Positions 6,940 through 55,627 of a stretch of 64,000 nt of DNA are shown here, piece after piece. The translations under genes were made by a program, and so were the position numbers. Each line of letters starts with the position of its first letter. The stretch's first letter is position 1. The notes under the pieces are model-generated. The model ran no database searches, was not told the DNA's origin, and saw only the letters and a program-made list of their open reading frames with translations. Origin of the DNA: a virus (lineage: Duplodnaviria > Caudoviricetes); the IMG/VR virus record IMGVR_UViG_3300010163_000009, positions 43,198-107,197 of that record; one strand, given 5' to 3'.

Positions 6940-9900
6940 ATGGCCGGACAAACATATCAAGTAAACTATATAGTCAATGTTGATGCTGCTAATGCACAAT
7001 CTGCGATAAATTCGTTTAAGCGTGCGGTTGCCTCAATGGATAAAGCTACGAAACCTATTATCGACTTACAGAATAAAGTTCGTGGCCTCGTAGAGACTAT
7101 GAGTGCGCTTAACAGAGGAAAATATTCTGTTAAGATAGATACTCGACCTGCCACTCAAAAGATAGGGAAACTGATTCGTGCTTTGCAGATGGCTAAGGCC
7201 GAAGTGCAGCAACTAAATGCTATGGGGGTAACTTTGGGAGGTGCAGGAACCAAAAGGAAAACCACATCTCGTACAACTGCTGCTTCTGTTGGCAGCTCTG
7301 CATCTCGCACACGAACAACACCTTCCAGTTCATCTCGCACAGCAACGTCTTCAACAAGACGTTACGTTTCCCCAATAATGAAGCATCCCACTAATCTCGG
7401 ATATAAACTTTGGGGTCCAACTCCGCTGCCTAATAACGGAGGCATGGCTATTGATATGCTTAAAGGTATGGGGATTGCTTACGGGCTTGCTGGTGCTGGA
7501 ATGATGGTGTCAAATGTTGTTAATCAAGCTGCTGAGTACGACAACTTGATGAAGACAGTTGAAAATATTCTGAAGTCCCATGATACTGAAGAAGATTTTG
7601 CAGGCAGATTTGCCCAGATGACTCAAACGGTTCGTAATGTCGGCATGAAAACGAAATTTACAGTAGTAGAGGTTGCTGATGCCGCACGTTTCCTTGCTAT
7701 GGCCGGTTTGAATGTAAATGCAATCCAACAAGCAATCAGTCCTATTGCCGATATAGCTTTGGTTGGAGATACTGAACTTGGTAAAACCGCTGATTTGGTC
7801 ACTAATATTATGACCGCATATAACATTGCGCCTAACCAAATGCGTAATACAGCAGATATTATGACCAATACATTTACTATGTCAAATACTACTTTGACCG
7901 AAATCGCTGAAGCTTATAAATATGCTGCATCGTTGCTTTCTGCTGGTAAAGTTCCGTTTGAAGAAGCTACGGCTGCTATTGGTGTATTGGGTGATGCCGG
8001 TATCAAAGGTTCACAGGCTGGTACGACAATGCGTACTATTATGGCAAACATTGCAAACCCGACTAAGAAGCAAAGGGAAGCATGGGATGCGATAGGCGTT
8101 AGCCGTATTGATAAAAACGGAAAACGGAAAAGCCTCCTTCAGATATTTCAGGAACTACATGACAAAAATCTTGATGTTGATGCGTATTACAATATATTTC
8201 ATAAAACCGCAGCTTCTGGAGCTGTAGCTCTTGCTGCACACGCAGATAAATGGGAAACTGTTTATCTTGAAAATTTCTTGTCTGGCGGCATGACACGTCG
8301 TTTGGCAGAAGAAAAACAAAATACTTTTAAAGGCTTGGTTGCACAGCTTGAATCTGTTTTTACCGATCAAGGAGTGACAGCGTTTAATGGAGTGCAGGGA
8401 ATATTGCGTGGTTGGATGAAATCGTCAATCAATTGGATGGATCCTAATAAAAACCCTGATGCACAAAAAGTATTCAAAGAGGTTGCCAATAGTTTGATAG
8501 AGTTTATACAAGTTCTTATCGATGCTTCTAAATGGTTTGTTTGGTTTTTTGATAAATTCGGTAGAATAGTGAAAACATGGGCCAAATTTCAGTTAATGAT
8601 TTGGCCTGTAGTAAAAGCTGTTACTGCTTTTAGAAGTGCGTTCCTTGGTCTTTTGGGATTAAGAAAGGTTAGTAGCGTACTTATAGGTTTCTCCAGCATC
8701 TTTGGCAATCTCAACAAAAAGCTTCTCGTTTTAGGAACTACGTTAAAGCAAGGTGGGTGGTTTAAGCAAAAGATAGGTGGTAGCATAGCAACTTTTCTTG
8801 GTAACACAGTTCCTGTAGCACCTCCGGGAAATACGTCTGGTGTCACACAAGTATCTCCATTTGGCTTTACAACTGGCATGGCTGGGTTTGCTCCATTGTC
8901 ATATAAACAGTACATGAAAGCAGCTAAAGGTTTGGACTTATCCAGACCTCATGCTTCAACCAGTGGCTATTACCTGAACAATATAGACAATTTCGGTCGT
9001 GAGGCAGAGGTTGCTGCATGGAACTCTGGAGTGTATGCTAATCGTCAGGCTGAGGATAAAGCCGCATTAAATCGATACAAGCAAAACCAAAAGACATTCA
9101 ATAAGCGTGTTCGTAACATGCAAATAAAGAATGGTCTTGGTGGTTTGGGTAAAATGGGGCTTGGCACAGCCGGTATGATGTTGGGTATGCACCAAATGAC
9201 TAAAGAAAATGCAAATGGTTGGGATGTTGCTTCTGGTGGACTCTTTGCTGCGGCAGGAATGGCTGCAATGGTTGGTGGTCCGGTTGGATGGATAGCTGCT
9301 GCTGGTTTGGCTCTTGGCGCATTGGGTTCTTCTTTGATGAGCTTCAACCAAAATCTTAATGCACTTTCTGACTTTGTTAATAGTTTCAGTAGAAGCCATC
9401 AACTTCTTGATGGAGCTTTACTTAATGGTAATACTCGTACAGAGCGTTATCTTGAATTTATATGGCGTAAGAACTACGATATAAATGACCTTATTCAACG
9501 TCGTATTGAGTTGATGAAGGAACTTCTTGGTATTGAAACACCAAATGCTACTACTACAAAAGATGTTGGCAATGAAGTGTATAAAACCATGTATGAGAAG
9601 TTTTACGCAGCTGACTCATTATGGGGGAGTTCTCCTGCCGCATCACGTGCCGCAGAACTTTTTAATAAATATGGTAAAGAGTTTGGTCTATCTATTGATA
9701 AACGTACAGAGACGTATTTGACAGGATATGATAGATATGGTAGACCTATGTATAACTCTCGTACTTATTGGGGTTATAAAGACGCTGAAGGAAACATTAT
9801 AAAGTTCAATAATCCGGATGGAACTTCTGATGCAAATGATGCTGTAATGTATGACGTTGCCGCTGCAATGGAAATGTTGCACGGACAGTATCGTTCTAAG

Positions 9901-11175
9901 ATAATTGACGAGAACCAACATCGTTTGGCACAAATCCTTTATGGTAAGGCAACTGCTGAAGACGCTAAAAATTGGCGTGACACATTTGCCACTACATACG
10001 GACCTTCTTCATGGACACATTTGACTCGTCCAGACCAGTGGAACGAAGATACTGATGTAGCAAAATATTGGTCTGGAGAAGATATTGCTCAGTCTTATAT
10101 AGCTGCTCAACTCCTTTGGAAGTCAATGTACCAAATGGTAGAGGCTCAAAACGCCATTGTTGCGTTCAAAGAAAAAATAGCGAATGGCAATTTAACCGAG
10201 AATGATGTTGTTAAGGCTTTACGATGGGGAGACTATGATATTCTTGGTCAAACGCTTGTTGATTATAATCCGAACGACATTGCAGGGTGGTTCAGGAATC
10301 TCGGATACTTTGGTGATGGAATTTGGCGTGACCCGTCAGGAAGGGAGACACCGGAAGTTATGGCTCAGACCGCCGCAGGGCAAATGCAACGTCTTTTAGA
10401 TTCAATACAGAAACTTGGACTTGAAGCAGATCCTTCCACTCGGGCACTTCAGACATACGCCAATACGTTACTTACGTTAGCCCAATCGTTTATGGGTTCT
10501 AATGAAGCTCTGTCGGGTTCACATGAAGGTGAAATTAAAGAATTGAATGGACAAAAATGGCGTTGGAACGCTACTACAAAACAGTGGGAACTCGTTGATG
10601 ACAATAACCAACCTGCGCAAATTTCACAGGGATTGTTAGATCTGTCTAACAATATGAATAACTTGTTGACAACGGTACAAACTGTTAATTCCCAATGGCC
10701 AACGCTTTCTCCTATTATTTATCCTTCTAATGCAGATACAGGGTGGCGTTTCCCTTATGATTGGGGTACAGAGGGACAATATGGTTGGCAGACTCCGTGG
10801 AATAATGGGAGTCATTTGATACCCCCCTCAATGACTTACACTACAACAGGTATAACTATGACCCCTTTACAGATGGGTAATGCTATCGCCAAACCCAGTC
10901 TTCCAGGGGTAAAAAATGGTGCTGGAACTGATAGTAATGGTAAAGATGGGCATACGGGTACTAAAACATCTGATTATAAATCCCACCAGAAGGAGCGTGC
11001 TATTCCAAAACAAATTAATATCAATATTCAGAATTTGATGAATGTTGACTCAATTGACTTGACCAACGAAAATAACGTTGCCATAATCGATGAAATTAAA
11101 CGTAAAGTCGCCTATGCACTTTATGAAGCCGCCGCAGACGGTACAATGATGCTGAATGGCCTTGCAAATACATAA
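6940..11175 (+). CDS. Tail tape measure protein (TP901-type core)
   Basis: 1411 aa; TKFT..EVA.A..FLAMAG and LGDAGIKGSQAGTTMR motifs; hydrophobic Gly/Ala segments. Confidence 0.92.
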   Translation: MAGQTYQVNYIVNVDAANAQSAINSFKRAVASMDKATKPIIDLQNKVRGLVETMSALNRGKYSVKIDTRPATQKIGKLIRALQMAKAEVQQLNAMGVTLGGAGTKRKTTSRTTAASVGSSASRTRTTPSSSSRTATSSTRRYVSPIMKHPTNLGYKLWGPTPLPNNGGMAIDMLKGMGIAYGLAGAGMMVSNVVNQAAEYDNLMKTVENILKSHDTEEDFAGRFAQMTQTVRNVGMKTKFTVVEVADAARFLAMAGLNVNAIQQAISPIADIALVGDTELGKTADLVTNIMTAYNIAPNQMRNTADIMTNTFTMSNTTLTEIAEAYKYAASLLSAGKVPFEEATAAIGVLGDAGIKGSQAGTTMRTIMANIANPTKKQREAWDAIGVSRIDKNGKRKSLLQIFQELHDKNLDVDAYYNIFHKTAASGAVALAAHADKWETVYLENFLSGGMTRRLAEEKQNTFKGLVAQLESVFTDQGVTAFNGVQGILRGWMKSSINWMDPNKNPDAQKVFKEVANSLIEFIQVLIDASKWFVWFFDKFGRIVKTWAKFQLMIWPVVKAVTAFRSAFLGLLGLRKVSSVLIGFSSIFGNLNKKLLVLGTTLKQGGWFKQKIGGSIATFLGNTVPVAPPGNTSGVTQVSPFGFTTGMAGFAPLSYKQYMKAAKGLDLSRPHASTSGYYLNNIDNFGREAEVAAWNSGVYANRQAEDKAALNRYKQNQKTFNKRVRNMQIKNGLGGLGKMGLGTAGMMLGMHQMTKENANGWDVASGGLFAAAGMAAMVGGPVGWIAAAGLALGALGSSLMSFNQNLNALSDFVNSFSRSHQLLDGALLNGNTRTERYLEFIWRKNYDINDLIQRRIELMKELLGIETPNATTTKDVGNEVYKTMYEKFYAADSLWGSSPAASRAAELFNKYGKEFGLSIDKRTETYLTGYDRYGRPMYNSRTYWGYKDAEGNIIKFNNPDGTSDANDAVMYDVAAAMEMLHGQYRSKIIDENQHRLAQILYGKATAEDAKNWRDTFATTYGPSSWTHLTRPDQWNEDTDVAKYWSGEDIAQSYIAAQLLWKSMYQMVEAQNAIVAFKEKIANGNLTENDVVKALRWGDYDILGQTLVDYNPNDIAGWFRNLGYFGDGIWRDPSGRETPEVMAQTAAGQMQRLLDSIQKLGLEADPSTRALQTYANTLLTLAQSFMGSNEALSGSHEGEIKELNGQKWRWNATTKQWELVDDNNQPAQISQGLLDLSNNMNNLLTTVQTVNSQWPTLSPIIYPSNADTGWRFPYDWGTEGQYGWQTPWNNGSHLIPPSMTYTTTGITMTPLQMGNAIAKPSLPGVKNGAGTDSNGKDGHTGTKTSDYKSHQKERAIPKQININIQNLMNVDSIDLTNENNVAIIDEIKRKVAYALYEAAADGTMMLNGLANT

Positions 11176-42244: not shown

Positions 42245-43285
42245 ATGTCAAAGATATTTCCATGTGCGTTGTTGATTAACGACATTCACGCCAGCAAAGA
42301 TAATATTTCCGAGTTCCGTAAGAATTGGGACGAAGCACTTGAACTATGCAAGCAGAACGAAGTACAGTATCTGATTGTAGGAGGCGATATGTGGCTTTCA
42401 CGAAGCTCTCAAACTTTGGATGTCCTTATGGCAGTCCGTTGGGCTATCTTGAAAGCTACTAAACAATACGGACTTTATGTGATTATCGCTGAAGGCAATC
42501 ATTGTAAGGTCAATCTTGAAAACATAGAGGGTTACAGCCATGTGTTTTCTGATTATGAAAACGTAGAAGTCGTTAATGATTTCACAGAGATTGTTCTTTC
42601 AGATGAAGTATCATTATGGGTAATGAGTTATTTCCCTGAAAACGGTTCGTTCATCAATAAACTGGACGCTATTAAACAAGAATATAGCACCAAGAAGAAT
42701 GTGCTATATATTCACGAAGGAATCCGTGGTGGCTTAGCTACTCCCAGTGATGATGAATTACCCGCCAATATCTTTAATGGATTCAATTCCGTATTGGTTG
42801 GACATTACCATAATCGTAAACAAATTCATGGTACAATAATAGAATATATCGGTTCTTCTCGCCAGCACAATTTTGGTGAAGATGAGGAGAAAGGTTATAC
42901 TATACTTTATTCAGATGGTTCTACTAAGTTTATCAAGAACGAGGTGAACCTGCGATACAAGGTCATCGAGGTAGATGTTGCAGACATGGATGACGATTTT
43001 ATGAATATGCTGGCTGAAATTAAAACCGATAGCCGCTATAAAGTCAAGGTTCGTGTTAAATGCGATTCTTCCCAGTCTTCCGCTATCAACAAACAGAAAC
43101 TTGCCGAAACCGGAGCTAACAAAATTGAGCTTGTCACAGAGCAAACAGAAGTGATGCGCACAGACCATCAGAGCATTACCCAGAAGTTTGACAAGTCAGG
43201 CATTAAGGAAGAGTACACTAACTTCTGTACTCAGAAATCCATCGATAATCAGCTTGGTCTCCACTATCTTGAAAAACTTAATTAA
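42245..43285 (+). CDS. sbcD: SbcD/Mre11-like metallophosphoesterase nuclease
   Basis: NDIH, GGD, GNH, GHYH and YIGS motifs; start moved to MSKIFP. Confidence 0.9.
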   Translation: MSKIFPCALLINDIHASKDNISEFRKNWDEALELCKQNEVQYLIVGGDMWLSRSSQTLDVLMAVRWAILKATKQYGLYVIIAEGNHCKVNLENIEGYSHVFSDYENVEVVNDFTEIVLSDEVSLWVMSYFPENGSFINKLDAIKQEYSTKKNVLYIHEGIRGGLATPSDDELPANIFNGFNSVLVGHYHNRKQIHGTIIEYIGSSRQHNFGEDEEKGYTILYSDGSTKFIKNEVNLRYKVIEVDVADMDDDFMNMLAEIKTDSRYKVKVRVKCDSSQSSAINKQKLAETGANKIELVTEQTEVMRTDHQSITQKFDKSGIKEEYTNFCTQKSIDNQLGLHYLEKLN

Positions 43286-48859: not shown

Positions 48860-49906
48860 ATGTATATCAGCAAAGAGGATAAGGAATATTTGATACGTGA
48901 GCTTCAAACGGAGCTTCATGCAAGATTGGATGGAGGTCGTAAAAATCTGATTGTACCCGAATGTATGTGGTGCGGAAAGACCGGTGGCAAACTTGGAATT
49001 TACGTTGGTCCCGAAAAGAATGGAAAAATCTTTGGGATGGCTCATTGCTTTTCTTGTGGTAGGACTTGTAAAGATCTCAACCGATTTGTAGATGAGATTG
49101 GTCGTTCAGACCTACAAATTCAAGATACAGTTAAATTTACTCCAGTGGAAGTACCTGAGTTCTTCAATCTGGAAGAAGATGAAATTGACGATGAGTTAGT
49201 GGTCGTGGAGATGCCAGAGTCATGGAAACGATGCTTTAAAAATTCATATTTGAAGTCTCGTGGCTTTACAGCTGATGACTATGCTTATTTCCCAGTTGGA
49301 ACCACTCGCGGTTTGAATTTCAAGTTCGATGATTATGTGGTTTTTCCTATTTATGATGAAGGTGATATAGTAGGATATGTTTCACGTCACGTTTGGAGCA
49401 AGGCTGACATTGACGAATATAACGATAGAGCAAAACGTAACGGCAAATACCAAATTCGCAGATACAATAACAGCATTGAAAACGATTTTGTCAAGCTATT
49501 ATACAATTATGATTCTGTGATAGAAGACGAGACAGACACTGTAATATTGGTTGAGGGTATATTTGATGTCATTGCCCTTACCCGAAAACTCGACTTGTAT
49601 GACAATCATCGAATTGTAGCTGTCTGTACGTTTGGAAAGAAAATAAGTGACACCCAAATTTACAAGCTTCAAAGCAAGGGTGTTCGTGACATTATTATAG
49701 GTTACGATGCCGATGCGTCTGACGCAATTAATGTAGCCGCCGACAAATTGAATGAGTATTTTGACAATGTAATGATTGCCAAACTCGTAGGAGAAGGTAA
49801 GGATTTTGATGATGCTGACTTTTGGGACATCTACGATACCTTTTCAGAATCTCTTTTTACTCCAATCGAATATAAATTGAGTAACGTAGATGGCAAAATC
49901 AGATAG
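48860..49906 (+). CDS. DNA primase (zinc finger plus TOPRIM)
   Basis: CMWC...HCFSC; VEGIFD; YDAD; KD motifs. Confidence 0.88.
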   Translation: MYISKEDKEYLIRELQTELHARLDGGRKNLIVPECMWCGKTGGKLGIYVGPEKNGKIFGMAHCFSCGRTCKDLNRFVDEIGRSDLQIQDTVKFTPVEVPEFFNLEEDEIDDELVVVEMPESWKRCFKNSYLKSRGFTADDYAYFPVGTTRGLNFKFDDYVVFPIYDEGDIVGYVSRHVWSKADIDEYNDRAKRNGKYQIRRYNNSIENDFVKLLYNYDSVIEDETDTVILVEGIFDVIALTRKLDLYDNHRIVAVCTFGKKISDTQIYKLQSKGVRDIIIGYDADASDAINVAADKLNEYFDNVMIAKLVGEGKDFDDADFWDIYDTFSESLFTPIEYKLSNVDGKIR

Positions 49907-51623
49907 AATAACAGAGCTATATGAATGGCTTGAAAAGAATAAAATCAAGTACATTCTGGTGGATTCGGACGTGATTGATATTCCTGGTTTTGGGAAAGCT
50001 TACTTCCAAGACACACAGCGTTCAACCTATAATTCCATTTTCCGCAAAGACGTGGACGGCAATTTTATTTTTAATAGCATGGTACGTCCAGAAGAATTGC
50101 TGAACGATGGAATTGAAAATATCGTGTTCAAATTTGGCAATAACTTTTACTACCACAATCTCAACCAAGATTTTAAACTGAATATCTTGAAATATGTTGG
50201 TGAACGTACTCCGCTTCGGCATAATATTCCATTTGTTAACCTTGGAGTGCATACCCCCTTTGAACTTCTGAACGGAAGTTTTATGCCGGATGAATGGATT
50301 CGCAAAGCAAAATACCTTGGACACACTGCACTTGGAATCTGTGATTACAATACGATGGCCGCTTGCTTTATCTTCCAAAAAGAATGTGACGCAGCCGGAA
50401 TCAAACCAGTGTTCGGGTATTCACTTACTGTGGAAGCCGAAGATTTCAAGTTTGGAGCAAAGGTCTATGTCCAGACACAACGTGGTTTCCGTAATTTGCT
50501 GAGGATTCAAAAAGCCATTATGGTTGATAATGTAGAAAATAAAACCATTGACATATCTGAACTTCTTAATCGGGCTGAAGGAAACGTGCTGGTGCTGGAC
50601 AAATACGCACCCACTTCTTTTGTAGAAAATGAGGACGTGGTTTCTATATTGAGTAAGGATTTTGACGCTATTTACTATCAAGTCGATTTATCTGAATACA
50701 AAGCAGAGCGTATTGATATTAAAATTTTAGAAGCGACCAAGAAATACTTCCATGAATGGTATGGTAATCCTCAAATGCCGAGACCGGTTCTCCTCAGTGA
50801 CGCATATTATTTGGATGTTGATGACGCTAAAAACAAAATCATTCTTAATAAGGTCGCTGAAGGTGCAGCACATGAGCAAAGCAACGACCAATATTTTAAG
50901 GACGCAGACGAGCATTATGCTTTATTTGAAGCATTGTTTGGAGAAGACTGGGATATAGAAGAACTATTTCGTGAGTGCGCAGAAAATACATTCGCTATTG
51001 CAAATAACGCCAAAGGTCGTATGGACACTACCAGAAACTATATGCCAAAGTATGATATGACGGAAGTGGAGCGGGAAAAGTATGGTACCACTCACAATAT
51101 GTTCAATCAACTTTTGGAAGAAGGTCTTCAGCGTTTGGCCCCTAAAGATAAGATTGAGCAATACAGGAAGCAAATGGAATATGAGAAGTACATTATCGAA
51201 TCTACTGATAATGTGGATTATTTGCTGGTGCAATACGATACTTGTAACTGGGCACGTAAGAACAACATCTTTGTAGGATGTGGTCGTGGCTCAGCAGCGG
51301 GCTCGCTACTTCTCTATTTGCTGGGCATTACGCTTATCGATCCTATCAAATACAATCTCATCTTTGAGCGTTTCTTGCTACCTGAGCGTGCCGGGCTATC
51401 CCAGGCAGACACTACCATTATCGGTAACGATATTGATTCTAACCATTATATTGAACTCACATTGGATAATAGTAAAACTATTATGGTTGATGTCGATGCT
51501 GAATTTATGGTTAGGAGATACGGCGAACAAGAACCTGTCAGGGTTTATGCCGATGAATTACAGAAAGATGATGATATTATCTTTGATAACAAAGACATTC
51601 TTTTCACAATCAACGAGTTATAA
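49890..51623 (+). CDS. dnaE: DNA polymerase III alpha, N-terminal half (PHP plus start of palm), ending in a degenerate IntN-like segment
   Basis: HTPFELLNG, GRGSAAGSLL.YLLGIT.IDP and FERFLLPER motifs. Confidence 0.92.
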   Translation: MAKSDRITELYEWLEKNKIKYILVDSDVIDIPGFGKAYFQDTQRSTYNSIFRKDVDGNFIFNSMVRPEELLNDGIENIVFKFGNNFYYHNLNQDFKLNILKYVGERTPLRHNIPFVNLGVHTPFELLNGSFMPDEWIRKAKYLGHTALGICDYNTMAACFIFQKECDAAGIKPVFGYSLTVEAEDFKFGAKVYVQTQRGFRNLLRIQKAIMVDNVENKTIDISELLNRAEGNVLVLDKYAPTSFVENEDVVSILSKDFDAIYYQVDLSEYKAERIDIKILEATKKYFHEWYGNPQMPRPVLLSDAYYLDVDDAKNKIILNKVAEGAAHEQSNDQYFKDADEHYALFEALFGEDWDIEELFRECAENTFAIANNAKGRMDTTRNYMPKYDMTEVEREKYGTTHNMFNQLLEEGLQRLAPKDKIEQYRKQMEYEKYIIESTDNVDYLLVQYDTCNWARKNNIFVGCGRGSAAGSLLLYLLGITLIDPIKYNLIFERFLLPERAGLSQADTTIIGNDIDSNHYIELTLDNSKTIMVDVDAEFMVRRYGEQEPVRVYADELQKDDDIIFDNKDILFTINEL

Positions 51624-51625
51624 TT

Positions 51626-52951
51626 ATGGAATTGACAGAAGAAATGAGTCGTGCGTTTCAAATCATAGAAGAAACGACAGACAGCCTTTTCATCACCGGA
51701 AAGGCTGGAACCGGGAAGACTACATTCCTGAAGTACATAGTTGAACACACCCACAAAAATATCATTGTGGCTGCATCAACTGGAATAGCAGCTATAAATG
51801 CGGGAGGTGTGACGTTGCATAGTTTGTTTGGAATCCCGTTTGAACTGCAAGGACCTAACACTCCGATTAAAGGAAAACTGTATCAAGATAAATTTGAGCT
51901 ATTTGGTAAACTTGATACCATTATCATTGATGAGGCAAGCATGGTTCGTCCGGATGTTCTGGATTATGTGGATCGTAAGCTGAGGCTCTACCGGATGAAT
52001 GAATTACCATTTGGAGGTGTTCAGGTTGTGTTGTTCGGAGATTTGTTCCAGTTGCCGCCTGTCATTAAAAAAAACGAAGAAGTTATTTTGCATCAGTGGT
52101 ATCGAGGCAATTATTTCTTTCATTCTCATGCACTGAGAGAGTCAGGTTTCCAGATTGTCGAACTTACCAAAGTGTTTCGTCAAAGGGATGAGCGCTTCGT
52201 GAATATGTTGAACCGCATACGGGAATACCAACTTCTTCCTATGGATATTGATGACCTCAGTGAATTACGTGATAACCGTGAGAGCAAAGATTTCACAACA
52301 CAAGCCATTCATATTTGTTCTTTGCGCCGTGATGCAGACAGAATCAATAATCAAATGATTGGAGAAGCCACACACACATTCCCAGCAGAGTTCAAAGATG
52401 CTTTTAACCCCAAGAATGCTCCATGCGACTTGAATTTGAAGCTGCGTGAAGGTGCACGAGTTATGACACTTGTGAATGACAACCAACAAGGATTTTATAA
52501 TGGCTCTATGGGTACTGTTAGCTGGATAAGTACGACAAAAATAGGAGTGCTATTGGATGCCGGACATGAAGTTATTATTGAACCATTTACTTGGATTGAT
52601 CGTGAATATAAAGTTAATGGAAATGAAATAAAAACGATTGAAAAGGGAAGCTGTAGGCAATTCCCCCTTACCCTTGGATGGGCTATTACAATCCATAAAA
52701 GCCAGGGGCTGACATTTGACAATGTGGTTATTCATTGCCCTTATGTATTTGCCCCTGGAATGTTATATGTTGCACTTAGCCGATGTACTTCAATGGAAGG
52801 AATTGTAACCGATTTCTTCATTAACAAGAGAGCCATCATTCAAGACAAAGAACTTATCGCTTTTAATAAAATTTGCCAAAATAACGGGAATAAATTTAAC
52901 CTGGACGTATATCGCTCCATTTGCAGGATTTTATGTTATGAAGATAACTAA
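51626..52951 (+). CDS. Pif1/RecD-like SF1B helicase inserted between the dnaE halves
   Basis: GKAGTGKT, DEASM, FGDLFQLPPV, VFRQ, AITIHKSQG and YVALSR motifs. Confidence 0.92.
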   Translation: MELTEEMSRAFQIIEETTDSLFITGKAGTGKTTFLKYIVEHTHKNIIVAASTGIAAINAGGVTLHSLFGIPFELQGPNTPIKGKLYQDKFELFGKLDTIIIDEASMVRPDVLDYVDRKLRLYRMNELPFGGVQVVLFGDLFQLPPVIKKNEEVILHQWYRGNYFFHSHALRESGFQIVELTKVFRQRDERFVNMLNRIREYQLLPMDIDDLSELRDNRESKDFTTQAIHICSLRRDADRINNQMIGEATHTFPAEFKDAFNPKNAPCDLNLKLREGARVMTLVNDNQQGFYNGSMGTVSWISTTKIGVLLDAGHEVIIEPFTWIDREYKVNGNEIKTIEKGSCRQFPLTLGWAITIHKSQGLTFDNVVIHCPYVFAPGMLYVALSRCTSMEGIVTDFFINKRAIIQDKELIAFNKICQNNGNKFNLDVYRSICRILCYEDN

Positions 52952-55115
52952 GATACAAGAATATAATACAAAGCATCCAGTTAAAGTGCTGGATTGCTTT
53001 GTTGACTCCGGCTATGTCAAGACGGAGCATGGCAGTTTGCCTGATGTGGACAACGATTTCCAATCTGATAAACGACAGGAAGTAAAAGAATATATAGAGC
53101 GTCGTTACAATCACGATGGAAAACAGCGCGTATTCTCTGCCGGTACATTTACAACTTTGAAAGCCAAAGCGGTAATCAAGGATGTAGCCAGAACAATGCG
53201 CATCAGTCCATCTTTGACGAATTATTTAACAGCAATCATTGAAGATGATGCGGCTGATTATACCGAAATATTCAAGTTGGCTGCAACCAATCGTAAGATT
53301 GCAAAGTTTATCCACGACTATCCACAACTGTTCGAGGACATCCGAACCTTGATGTTCCAGCCTCGCTCCAGTTCCGTCCACGCTTCAGCACTATTGGTAA
53401 CTCCTGATGAAATGGACGGTGAAGACGTAGAATGTTTTGACTTTGTTCCTATCAAAAAAGTAGATGATATACTTGTCAGCGAAAACAGTGGTTATGACCT
53501 TGATGAACTCGGACTTCTTAAAAATGACTGCCTGGCAACAAAAGAACTCTCGAAATTGCACCAAACTTTTGATTTGGTAAATGAACATTATGATGCCGGA
53601 CTCACAATGGAAAGCGTGGTGGAAAGTAATTTGTCGGATGAGCGTGCATACGAACTTCTGCGCCAAGGATTCACTCAGAATGTATTTCAGCTGTCATCAC
53701 GAGGCATGACTAAGTTCTTGGTTGAGATGCAACCGACTTGTATTCACGACCTGATTGCCGCCAATGCACTGTTCCGCCCGGCAACACTGGAGAATGGCTC
53801 GACTGAAGCTTATGTGGATCGTAAGAAAGGTTTAGTAGCACCGACGTATCTATGGGGAACGTACAATTCCTTAAATGACACTTTCGGACTGATCACTTAT
53901 CAGGAACAAGTTGCCCAGATTGCTCGTGAAGTCGGCGGCTTTTCGTTGGGGGAAGGTGTGAAACTCGTTAAATTCATTTCAAAGAAGAAGACCGAGAAGA
54001 TTCAAGCTATGCGTGAAAAATTCCTTAAAGGAGCAAAGAAAAACGGCTGTCCTATCGAAGATGCTATATCCATTTGGCAGCAGATTGAAGCTTGCGGGTC
54101 CTACCTCTTTAATAAATCACATGCCACAGCCTATGCTGTTACATCTTACATAGGGGCCTATCTCAAAGCTCAGTACCCGACAGCTTTCTACACGGTGGCT
54201 TTGGAATGGGCTGATGATAAGGAACTCATCCCTATAATGTCCGAAATGGAAGCTTGTAGCAGCGCCAAAGTAGTGTCACCGGATATTAACAAGAGTGCGA
54301 TGAATTTCTATACCGATTATGAGACCAATCAGATATTTTGGTCACTCTCTCGTATAAAAATGGTAGGTACAAAAGCTGTTGACTGGATTATCAACGAGCG
54401 AGACAAGAATGGTGAGTTCACTGGTATTATCAATTTCATTGAGCGCATTTTCAAATATAAGTTGAAGAAGTACCAGTATTGGGACGATCCCGACAATGAG
54501 GATGAAATCAAGCGTTGCCCGGTAAATGCCCGACATGTTCTCAATCTCATTCTTGCCGGTTGTTTCGATCATGTTGAAAATGCTTTATCGGTAGTGGAAC
54601 GGTACGCGATCGTGGAAAAAGCAGCCGAGACTCTTGGCTTTGAAATTAAAGTTAAAGATTTCCCTGAAGATTTGATAGGGAAGCATTATTTCTGGTCCCA
54701 GCAACAAATCAAAGTGTCTGGTCTTGGTGCTATAGACTATAAGCGAATATACGACAACAGTGCCATCAAGGAACAGATTCGCGGACGTGCCTCTTACACG
54801 TCCCTCAAAGACACATTGAGCAATGACAAGGATGGGCGTAAAGCCGCTATTGCCGCAACTATTGTAGAGATGGAAGAAAAGAAATTTACCAGCAAAAAAA
54901 CTGGTGAACAAGAAGTGTTCTGTAAAATAACGCTTCAACAGAATAATGATATGGCAGAACTGGTGATATGGCCAGAAGAATATCGCAATGCACGGGCATT
55001 ACTTGTTGGAGCCAAGAACAAATTGATAATCTGTATGGCCGCTATTAAATATAACGACTATGTTGGACACAACAATCTTCAACTAACACGCAATAATTTC
55101 ATTGAAGTAATATGA
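52938..55115 (+). CDS. dnaE: DNA polymerase III alpha, C-terminal half, starting with a degenerate IntC-like segment
   Basis: SLPDVDNDF catalytic aspartates, LLKND.L, YQEQ, FNKSHATAY, PDINKS, and OB fold. Confidence 0.93.
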   Translation: MKITKIQEYNTKHPVKVLDCFVDSGYVKTEHGSLPDVDNDFQSDKRQEVKEYIERRYNHDGKQRVFSAGTFTTLKAKAVIKDVARTMRISPSLTNYLTAIIEDDAADYTEIFKLAATNRKIAKFIHDYPQLFEDIRTLMFQPRSSSVHASALLVTPDEMDGEDVECFDFVPIKKVDDILVSENSGYDLDELGLLKNDCLATKELSKLHQTFDLVNEHYDAGLTMESVVESNLSDERAYELLRQGFTQNVFQLSSRGMTKFLVEMQPTCIHDLIAANALFRPATLENGSTEAYVDRKKGLVAPTYLWGTYNSLNDTFGLITYQEQVAQIAREVGGFSLGEGVKLVKFISKKKTEKIQAMREKFLKGAKKNGCPIEDAISIWQQIEACGSYLFNKSHATAYAVTSYIGAYLKAQYPTAFYTVALEWADDKELIPIMSEMEACSSAKVVSPDINKSAMNFYTDYETNQIFWSLSRIKMVGTKAVDWIINERDKNGEFTGIINFIERIFKYKLKKYQYWDDPDNEDEIKRCPVNARHVLNLILAGCFDHVENALSVVERYAIVEKAAETLGFEIKVKDFPEDLIGKHYFWSQQQIKVSGLGAIDYKRIYDNSAIKEQIRGRASYTSLKDTLSNDKDGRKAAIAATIVEMEEKKFTSKKTGEQEVFCKITLQQNNDMAELVIWPEEYRNARALLVGAKNKLIICMAAIKYNDYVGHNNLQLTRNNFIEVI

Positions 55116-55627
55116 AACCATTAATCATTTGTATAGTAGGAGCATCCGGAAGTGGAAAAACTACCGCTTCCATGATTCTCCAGAAACAATTTGGCTGGAA
55201 TGCCATTGTGTCATATATCACACGCCCTATGCGTAAGGGAGAAATAAATGGGAAAGATCATTGGTTTGTCAAGAAAGACCAAATGCCACCTCTAAATAGA
55301 ATGTGCGCCTATACCCAATTTGGAGGCTACGAATACTGGACGGAGTGGAACCAGTTCCAGACACTCTTTCCCAGTATTTATGTAATTGACGAGAAAGGTC
55401 TTGTAAACCTGCAAAGCAAAATCTGCTCTTTCCCCTTCGATTTGGTTACAATCCAAATCAAACGTGATAATCTTCAGGAGATTGACGATAAACGCAGAGA
55501 ACGAGACAATGAACGAATATGTGTTCCCGATGAGCAGTATGACTACATCGTCGAAAATAATGGTTCAATGGAAGAATTTCGCACCTCCCTTTATTTAACC
55601 GCACAATGTATCATCCAAAAACAATAA
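55112..55627 (+). CDS. Guanylate-kinase-like nucleotide kinase
   Basis: GASGSGKT and S.ITRPMRKGE.NGKDHWFV motifs. Confidence 0.85.
   Translation: MKPLIICIVGASGSGKTTASMILQKQFGWNAIVSYITRPMRKGEINGKDHWFVKKDQMPPLNRMCAYTQFGGYEYWTEWNQFQTLFPSIYVIDEKGLVNLQSKICSFPFDLVTIQIKRDNLQEIDDKRRERDNERICVPDEQYDYIVENNGSMEEFRTSLYLTAQCIIQKQ

Follow-up and report, generated by a model that had tools for sequence, protein, structure and literature searches.

How does a phage assemble its replicative polymerase when the gene is broken directly ahead of the catalytic aspartates, and what are the two short extensions that the broken ends carry? The question is raised by a locus of a gut Bacteroides phage, in a 64,000-nucleotide stretch of viral DNA (Duplodnaviria; Caudoviricetes), positions 43,198 to 107,197 of the IMG/VR record IMGVR_UViG_3300010163_000009, which was analysed as a whole and is called the window here. 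Its DnaE is encoded by two open reading frames (ORFs): the first, DnaE-N, ends in a tail that resembles the N-terminal part of an intein (IntN), and the second, DnaE-C, begins with a head that resembles the C-terminal part (IntC). The explanation that we favour, and consider probable, is that these extensions are a degenerate split intein, retained as a non-covalent docking module that joins two DnaE subunits.

Three closely packed ORFs (DnaE-N, a helicase and DnaE-C) occupy positions 49890-55115 of the plus strand of the window, with the following parts:

49890-51623, plus strand: DnaE-N ORF, 577 residues, reading ...FERFLLPERA, then GLSQADTTII...FTINEL, then TAA
49890-51389, plus strand: DnaE-N body, comprising PHP and the first part of the palm up to FERFLLPER; Pfam PHP E 2.7e-13; DNA_pol3_alpha positions 3-105, E 4.4e-28; ratio of non-synonymous to synonymous substitution rates (dN/dS) 0.05
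51390-51623, plus strand: IntN-like tail, 77 residues from Ala501 (76 from the Gly that follows) plus the TAA stop; net charge -12; all-beta
52938-55115, plus strand: DnaE-C ORF, 725 residues
52938-53033, plus strand: IntC-like head, 32 residues (MKITKIQ...KTEHG), the first 18 basic; the final, invariant Gly precedes Ser+1
53034-55115, plus strand: DnaE-C body, comprising the SLPDVDNDF catalytic-aspartate motif, the remaining palm, the fingers and the helix-hairpin-helix (HhH); DNA_pol3_alpha positions 93-260; dN/dS 0.03
51626-52951, plus strand: PIF1/Dda-like superfamily 1 helicase between the two halves, 441 residues; Pfam PIF1 E 3.7e-33

The first-pass annotation of this locus, made from the letters alone, had described a DnaE split into an N half with a tail of about 76 residues and a C half with a 32-residue head, and the ORFs and their translations agree with that description. 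All DnaE domains are found (PHP, palm with the PDxD aspartates, fingers and HhH), spread over the two ORFs. The family PF07733 is divided between them, with profile positions 3-105 in DnaE-N and 93-260 in DnaE-C, and the DnaE-C body also matches Pfam DNA_pol3_finger (E 7.6e-40) and HHH_6 (E 4.7e-16). The break point lies in the palm, directly ahead of the catalytic aspartates, and a profile search of PDB sequences aligns the junction region with residues 453-487 of Taq DnaE. At this point the DnaE of Chryseobacterium phage MA9V-3 is unsplit, reading ...FERFLNEGRVGKSLPDIDND. Streptomyces phage OzzyJ and Bacteroides phage DAC16, considered as further same-site splits, were rejected, as DnaE is unsplit in both. 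No second DnaE, PolA or PolB is present in the source record, a 107-kb IMG/VR phage genome that is 97% complete. The split DnaE is therefore the sole recognisable DNA polymerase of the genome, which upholds the earlier claim that both halves are needed.

The packing of the three genes is tight: the helicase ATG lies 2 nucleotides past the DnaE-N stop codon, and the DnaE-C ATG (52938) overlaps the 3' end of the helicase gene by 14 nucleotides. The closest isolate is Bacteroides phage BS-TP1, with 91% protein identity. In its record (L001, PQ571274.1) DnaE-C, at 9049-10677, is unannotated because the deposited sequence was linearised inside that gene; within it, the opposite strand carries an annotated 'hypothetical protein gp1', and DnaE-N is named merely 'DNA polymerase'.

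Conservation and lost splicing residues

The extensions are kept wherever they can be followed. All 55 IMG/VR loci retain the tail, at 59-92% identity, and every locus that reaches far enough retains the head; both also persist in phage BS-TP1 and in more distant relatives, irrespective of what lies between the halves, and no relative of this clade was found to have lost either. Among these loci there are 39 distinct tails and 23 distinct heads. Pooled Nei-Gojobori estimates over pairs with a body dS of 0.1-1.2 put dN/dS at 0.11 in the tail and at 0.08-0.09 in the head; the N body has 0.05 and the C body 0.03. Both extensions are translated and constrained. Their conservation under purifying selection, one of the checks that the first-pass annotation had set, is in this way borne out in more than 50 relatives.

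The tail appears to be confined to this setting. A tail profile searched with hmmsearch against 1.84 billion representatives matched 43 clusters, in which the confident full-length matches are the C-terminal ends of split DnaE-N proteins (about 575-613 residues) or their fragments, and the remainder are fragments plus a few weak repetitive or short matches; no contiguous or active intein relative was among the 43. One of the short matches, the 87-residue metagenomic protein P0045, begins ...NA-CVVGDTKI, which is a block A typical of inteins, with Cys1, and is tail-like after it (E 4e-4). From its sequence, P0045 may be a piece of IntN-like sequence from some other host gene, and a possible link between this dead family and live inteins.

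The residues on which splicing depends are missing across the clade. Intein position 1 is Ala in all 39 clade tails, Cys in three divergent relatives (L002, P0028 and P0038) and Gly in a fourth (P0009). The first-pass annotation had taken position 1 to be the Gly that follows PERA. Since PER-A-GL of the window corresponds to PER-C-GL in the distant relatives, the equivalent residue is more likely Ala501; Ala and Gly are both non-nucleophilic, and so the conclusion that the position-1 nucleophile is absent stands with a different residue. In block B the aligned positions read D-x-D-A instead of T-x-x-H (D in 36/39, D in 36/39 and A in 37/39). The last head residue is Gly in 23 of 23 heads, preceded by G, H, S or N, and L059, in which Cys1 is kept, still ends ...GGRI/SLPD (here and below a slash marks the junction). 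At +1, Ser is found in the window and in 21 of the 23 distinct heads, with one Ala (L015/L054) and one Gln (L029/L030/L050). A Cys at head position 20, following a conserved Asp, is common (17/23) and is replaced by Thr or Met in the other six. The residue triplet of class 3 inteins, which we take to be Trp in block B, Cys at block F:4 and Thr in block G, was not found: the 39 tails have no Trp in the block-B stretch and the 23 heads no conserved Thr near their end. A quick tree of the DnaE-N bodies has unsettled deep forks and leaves undecided whether Cys at position 1 is ancestral.

Judged by these residues, the element cannot splice by any known route, because the position-1 nucleophile, the block-B Thr and His and the terminal His-Asn have all been lost; the same had been concluded from the window alone, and the survey now extends it to the whole clade, some members of which also have a non-nucleophilic +1 residue. 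It could still be supposed that the element trans-splices or cleaves by a non-canonical chemistry to give a single-chain DnaE, in view of the Ser+1 of the window, the common head Cys and the dispensability of the position-1 nucleophile in intein classes 2 and 3. We regard this as very improbable, given that the invariant terminal Gly leaves no Asn, Gln or Asp able to cyclise, that +1 is Ala or Gln in some relatives, that six of the 23 heads have replaced the Cys with Thr or Met, and that block B has neither Trp nor His.

What has been kept is the architecture of a naturally split intein, with separate ORFs, a 32-residue head and opposite charges. The tail has a median net charge of -12 (range -19 to -8) and the first 18 head residues one of +4. 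Natural split inteins show the same opposite-charge pattern in their halves (PMC2677866).

These features bear on the alternative that the remnant is a tolerated passenger, in which the palm halves bind through an interface of their own and the extensions need only fold and keep clear of the active site. There is precedent for it among phage enzymes, as the NrdA of Aeh1 is split by homing-endonuclease insertion and works as non-covalent pieces. The T4 topoisomerase subunits gp39/gp60, split in the same manner, likewise work as non-covalent pieces (bioRxiv 10.1101/2022.08.31.505936). A passenger would also fit the dN/dS of the extensions, which is two to three times that of the bodies. However, a ratio near 0.1 that holds for a stretch exceeding 100 residues, in all relatives and despite their deep divergence, amounts to strong constraint; the extensions have been lost in no relative of the clade, and the opposite charges of the two pieces suggest that their association has been selected. 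We therefore consider a mere passenger unlikely.

The sequence between the halves is far less stable than the extensions that flank it. A helicase gene sits there in the window's clade; in L002 (7721-9393) its place is taken by an N6-type DNA methylase gene and an HNH gene; and in two distant relatives, L059 and the P0038 contig, nothing intervenes. The site between the DnaE halves is a hot spot for insertions, and the helicase is cargo that forms no part of the clasp, since the distant relatives have adjacent halves. Extra small ORFs, one of them Cys-rich, lie between the halves at L011 (7732-8112) and L038 (7208-7474). In the P0038 contig the halves overlap in ATGA, and in L059 (1942-1950) they share a reading frame and are divided only by TAG-CGT; from this sequence, read-through of the stop in L059 would yield one continuous polypeptide that encloses a dead Hint domain.

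The arrangement in L059, with its halves in frame over a single TAG, raises the further alternative that the split in the window is only apparent, its halves being joined at the level of RNA or translation by an intron, a frameshift or read-through. Probable recoding at the head/body junction in other relatives, described below, would be in keeping with this, but in the window the halves are separated by an intact, conserved helicase ORF of 441 residues in a different frame, and tail and head evolve as translated protein. No Rfam family, and hence no group I or II intron, was found in positions 49800-55200 or in L053, and an intron was rejected on these grounds together with the protein-like evolution of tail and head. 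We consider joining of this kind in the window extremely improbable.

Predicted Hint fold of the tail and head

Similarity to the fold that inteins share, the Hint domain, was looked for in sequence and in structure. At the level of sequence it is recurrent and below threshold: the Intein_splicing family PF14890 is the commonest Pfam match of the tails (36 of 39 at E<=1, best E 5.4e-5), with every match under the gathering score, and four tails additionally match a Hint module family. The tail of the window scores 15.5 bits (E 0.016) and does not reach the gathering threshold of 35.8 bits. A feature search of the ESM Atlas returned low scores, the DnaE clusters scoring 0.86 and a single intein cluster 0.76.

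Structure prediction gave a clearer picture. Modelled alone with AlphaFold2, the tail adopts a fold of moderate confidence (predicted local-distance difference test, pLDDT, 61), and exhaustive comparison of this model with 48,161 PDB representatives returned Hint structures as 26 of the 28 top matches (Z 5.9-2.8). For a joined model we used the natural read-through of L059, in which TAG read as Gln links tail-Q-R-head in one chain, and supplied AlphaFold2 with a block-diagonal alignment of tails and heads. In this model the tail core reaches a pLDDT of 94-98 and the head, which forms two long strands, 96-97. Against the same PDB representatives (VIA-align), all 27 of the top 27 matches belong to the Hint superfamily of inteins, Hedgehog and bacterial intein-like (BIL) domains; the best reach Z 8.5, with 65 residues aligned at a root-mean-square deviation of 2.4 A, and Z 7.8, with 92 residues aligned, and the alignments cover model residues from about 17 to 125, starting at the N junction and ending close to the C junction. 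Foldseek likewise placed inteins, Hedgehog or BIL domains in all of its top 50 positions (best E 1.4e-4), and matches in a viral structure library were intein-bearing terminases, ribonucleotide reductases and 'Hint module' proteins. In prediction, on a relative, tail and head together form a Hint fold, and the Hint similarity that had been read from motifs in the tails thus holds at the level of the fold, with the subthreshold PF14890 matches in accord. The domain measures only about 108 residues (about 76 + 32) and is, to our knowledge, smaller than any active intein.

We think it quite improbable that the extensions have another origin, as generic beta-rich tails of a homing cassette like the C-terminal and N-terminal extensions (CTE and NTE) of T4 MobA, with a likeness to Hint that is convergent or an artefact of prediction. 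The head is indeed carried by a mobile HNH cassette in some relatives, intein similarity is subthreshold in sequence, and the top structural Z is just 8.5. Against these points stand structural match lists that are nearly pure Hint (27/27, 50/50 and, for the tail alone, 26/28), PF14890 as the top recurrent family, an insertion point at a catalytic-site motif, a 32-residue head and a charge pattern that fit split inteins, and Cys at position 1 in three divergent relatives.

Profile alignments also extend DnaE homology into the end of the head (window 53010-53033, head residues about 25-32), where Y-L/V-x-G-x-G-G aligns with F-L-N-P-E-R-V of Taq DnaE and the PF07733 match starts from position 74 or 93. 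As read from the alignments, this likeness may stem from a degenerated copy of the junction motif, comparable to the 'homR' of MobA, or may be alignment spill-over.

Taken as a retained docking module, the element would work as follows. The sole replicative polymerase of the phage would be encoded as two polypeptides with a break in the palm, and the last 76-77 residues of DnaE-N and the first 32 of DnaE-C would be the halves of a miniaturised Hint domain of split-intein descent. Acidic tail and basic head would most likely meet electrostatically and co-fold into one beta-rich domain, which would place PER(A) beside SLPD and hold the palm halves together without a covalent bond. The outcome would be a two-subunit polymerase from translationally coupled genes. 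That tail and head bind, and that the polymerase needs this binding for its assembly, we infer from the observations above.

A mobile cassette and a stop-led gap in relatives

The head is not always inherited with the DnaE-C body that it precedes. At nine loci (L016, L023, L028, L042, L043, L052, L053, L055 and L002), and probably also at L066, a cassette stands in place of the resident head, beginning directly after the first codons of the latter. It consists of a NUMOD4+HNH_3 endonuclease gene, which L028 and L042 lack, and a new head that is about 50% identical to the resident one. An example is:

L053:9043-9720: cassette in place of the resident head

Two pairs of genomes are near-isogenic save for the cassette. 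From DVD onward, L052 matches L046 at about 100% identity; between L053 and L054, identity is 98-100% once a co-conversion tract of about 120 nucleotides has been passed. Complete genomes hold the interrupted copy of DnaE-C only. As lineages swap in heads that share only about 50% identity with the resident one, the fit of tail to head is not tightly matched, which is the remaining point in favour of a tolerated passenger.

The new head is not continuous with the DnaE-C body. Its ORF ends ...GSLP followed by a stop codon, and the stop together with 4-5 further bases makes a gap of 7 or 8 nucleotides ahead of GAT-GTN-GAT (DVD), which lies in another frame. Eight loci have CCG and one has CCA directly before the stop, and the triplet that precedes GAT is always NCG (TCG in six, GCG in two and CCG in one). 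A 10-bp hairpin adjoins the Pro codon, with 90/90 cells paired and compensatory changes at 6 of its 10 pairs, and 0 of 500 shuffles match it; alleles that have no gap are also without the hairpin. By analogy with T4 mobA/gene 60, this stop-led gap is a candidate for a short ribosomal hop, in which peptidyl-tRNA-Pro moving from CCG to NCG would restore ...SLP/DVD... exactly. The junction might instead be crossed by a +1 or +2 frameshift, or the DnaE-C body might be initiated separately; in L016 and L055 there is no ATG, GTG or TTG upstream in the DVD frame.

The cassette also supplies one of several points that weigh against a docking function for the extensions. In these nine relatives a stop codon parts the head from the DnaE-C body, and if that stop is not bypassed, the head in those phages cannot tether anything. 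Intein homology in sequence lies under every curated threshold (15.5 against 35.8 bits in the window), and searching PDB sequences with profiles of the tail and of the head gave no intein, the head profile extending merely into DnaE itself. The confident structural model is of a relative 41-51% identical to the window's pair, covalently linked and built from a block-diagonal alignment, and its contacts between the pieces therefore rest on a learned fold and not on co-evolution. Finally, the palm halves might self-associate, as in other phage genes in pieces, in which case the remnant would be constrained only to fold harmlessly.

With these points in view we still favour the docking module. 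A fuller picture, plausible to us but short of probable, is of a gut Bacteroides phage clade with an obligate heterodimer replicase, clasped by a domesticated dead mini split intein of about 108 residues whose IntC-like half is mobile in an HNH homing cassette, and in which the 7-8-nucleotide gap protects the target site of the cassette and, with the aid of the co-varying 10-bp hairpin, is hopped by ribosomes from Pro CCG to NCG to restore ...SLP/DVD....

The usual view of inteins is of selfish elements with two fates, splicing or loss. If a docking module is indeed what these phages have retained, it would represent a third fate, domestication within an essential enzyme after the loss of all chemistry, selected in dozens of phage genomes. 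For protein engineering it would offer a very small (about 76 + 32 residues), cysteine-independent and non-reactive heterodimerisation pair, and for annotation the locus explains the apparent absence of a full-length polymerase in these phages. The HNH cassette with its stop-led gap links intein-derived tails to gene splitting of the T4 MobA type, and it is a new candidate case of translational bypassing over a short gap in phages of Bacteroidota.

Comparison with known systems

A literature search returned no description of a naturally inactive split intein that serves as a dimerisation module or subunit clasp, which is no proof of novelty, and parts of the arrangement have clear counterparts. 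The cyanobacterial Ssp/Npu DnaE intein also divides Pol III alpha into two polypeptides with complementary Hint halves; unlike the present element, it is active and trans-splices. It is inserted in the fingers, beside the FNKSH motif, and the genes for its two halves lie far apart. That motif is intact in the DnaE-C of the window. The Hedgehog C-terminal and BIL domains, which are among the structural matches, resemble the present element in having a Hint fold without canonical splicing. They differ in being single-chain domains that keep the position-1 nucleophile and cleave or transfer (to cholesterol, among others), whereas here the nucleophile is absent and the fold is shared by two polypeptides.

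A closer parallel is found in fractured genes, phage-like replication genes (gp41, NrdA/J, IMPDH, DnaE, ligase and terminase) in which a split intein interrupts the coding sequence and a free-standing gene for a homing endonuclease separates the two parts (Dassa et al. 2009, PMC2677866). The order of parts is the same, an N-extein with an IntN-like tail, an intervening gene, and an IntC-like head with the C-extein, all tightly packed; the genes affected are phage replication enzymes that include DnaE, IntC has about 32-37 residues, the halves are oppositely charged, and an HNH gene lies between the halves in relatives of the window. The split inteins of fractured genes, however, keep all five catalytic residues and all six Hint motifs and are presumed to splice (PMC2677866), whereas here every catalytic position has been lost and the domain is shorter (about 108 residues). 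The intervening gene of the window is moreover a PIF1-like helicase and no homing endonuclease, and the PER/SLPD insertion site may differ from the three DnaE sites reported for fractured genes (PMC2677866).

The other close parallel is T4 MobA, an HNH cassette that splits the gene 39/60 topoisomerase at a catalytic metal-binding motif, adds element-encoded CTE and NTE tails to the new ends, which are proposed to restore assembly, and is protected by a 50-nucleotide ribosomal bypass gap; some lineages have dropped the endonuclease and the bypass, and the tails are always retained (bioRxiv 10.1101/2022.08.31.505936). Relatives of the window similarly combine an HNH gene with a replaced head and a coding gap led by a stop codon. 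Unlike in MobA, the tails here are predicted to have a Hint fold, the gap is of 7-8 nucleotides instead of 50 with a single upstream hairpin, and the split gene is dnaE in Bacteroides phages. The locus had been put forward in the first-pass annotation as the best candidate for an undescribed system; set beside these two precedents, it is better described as a variant of known fractured genes and of MobA-type tails than as a wholly new kind of system.

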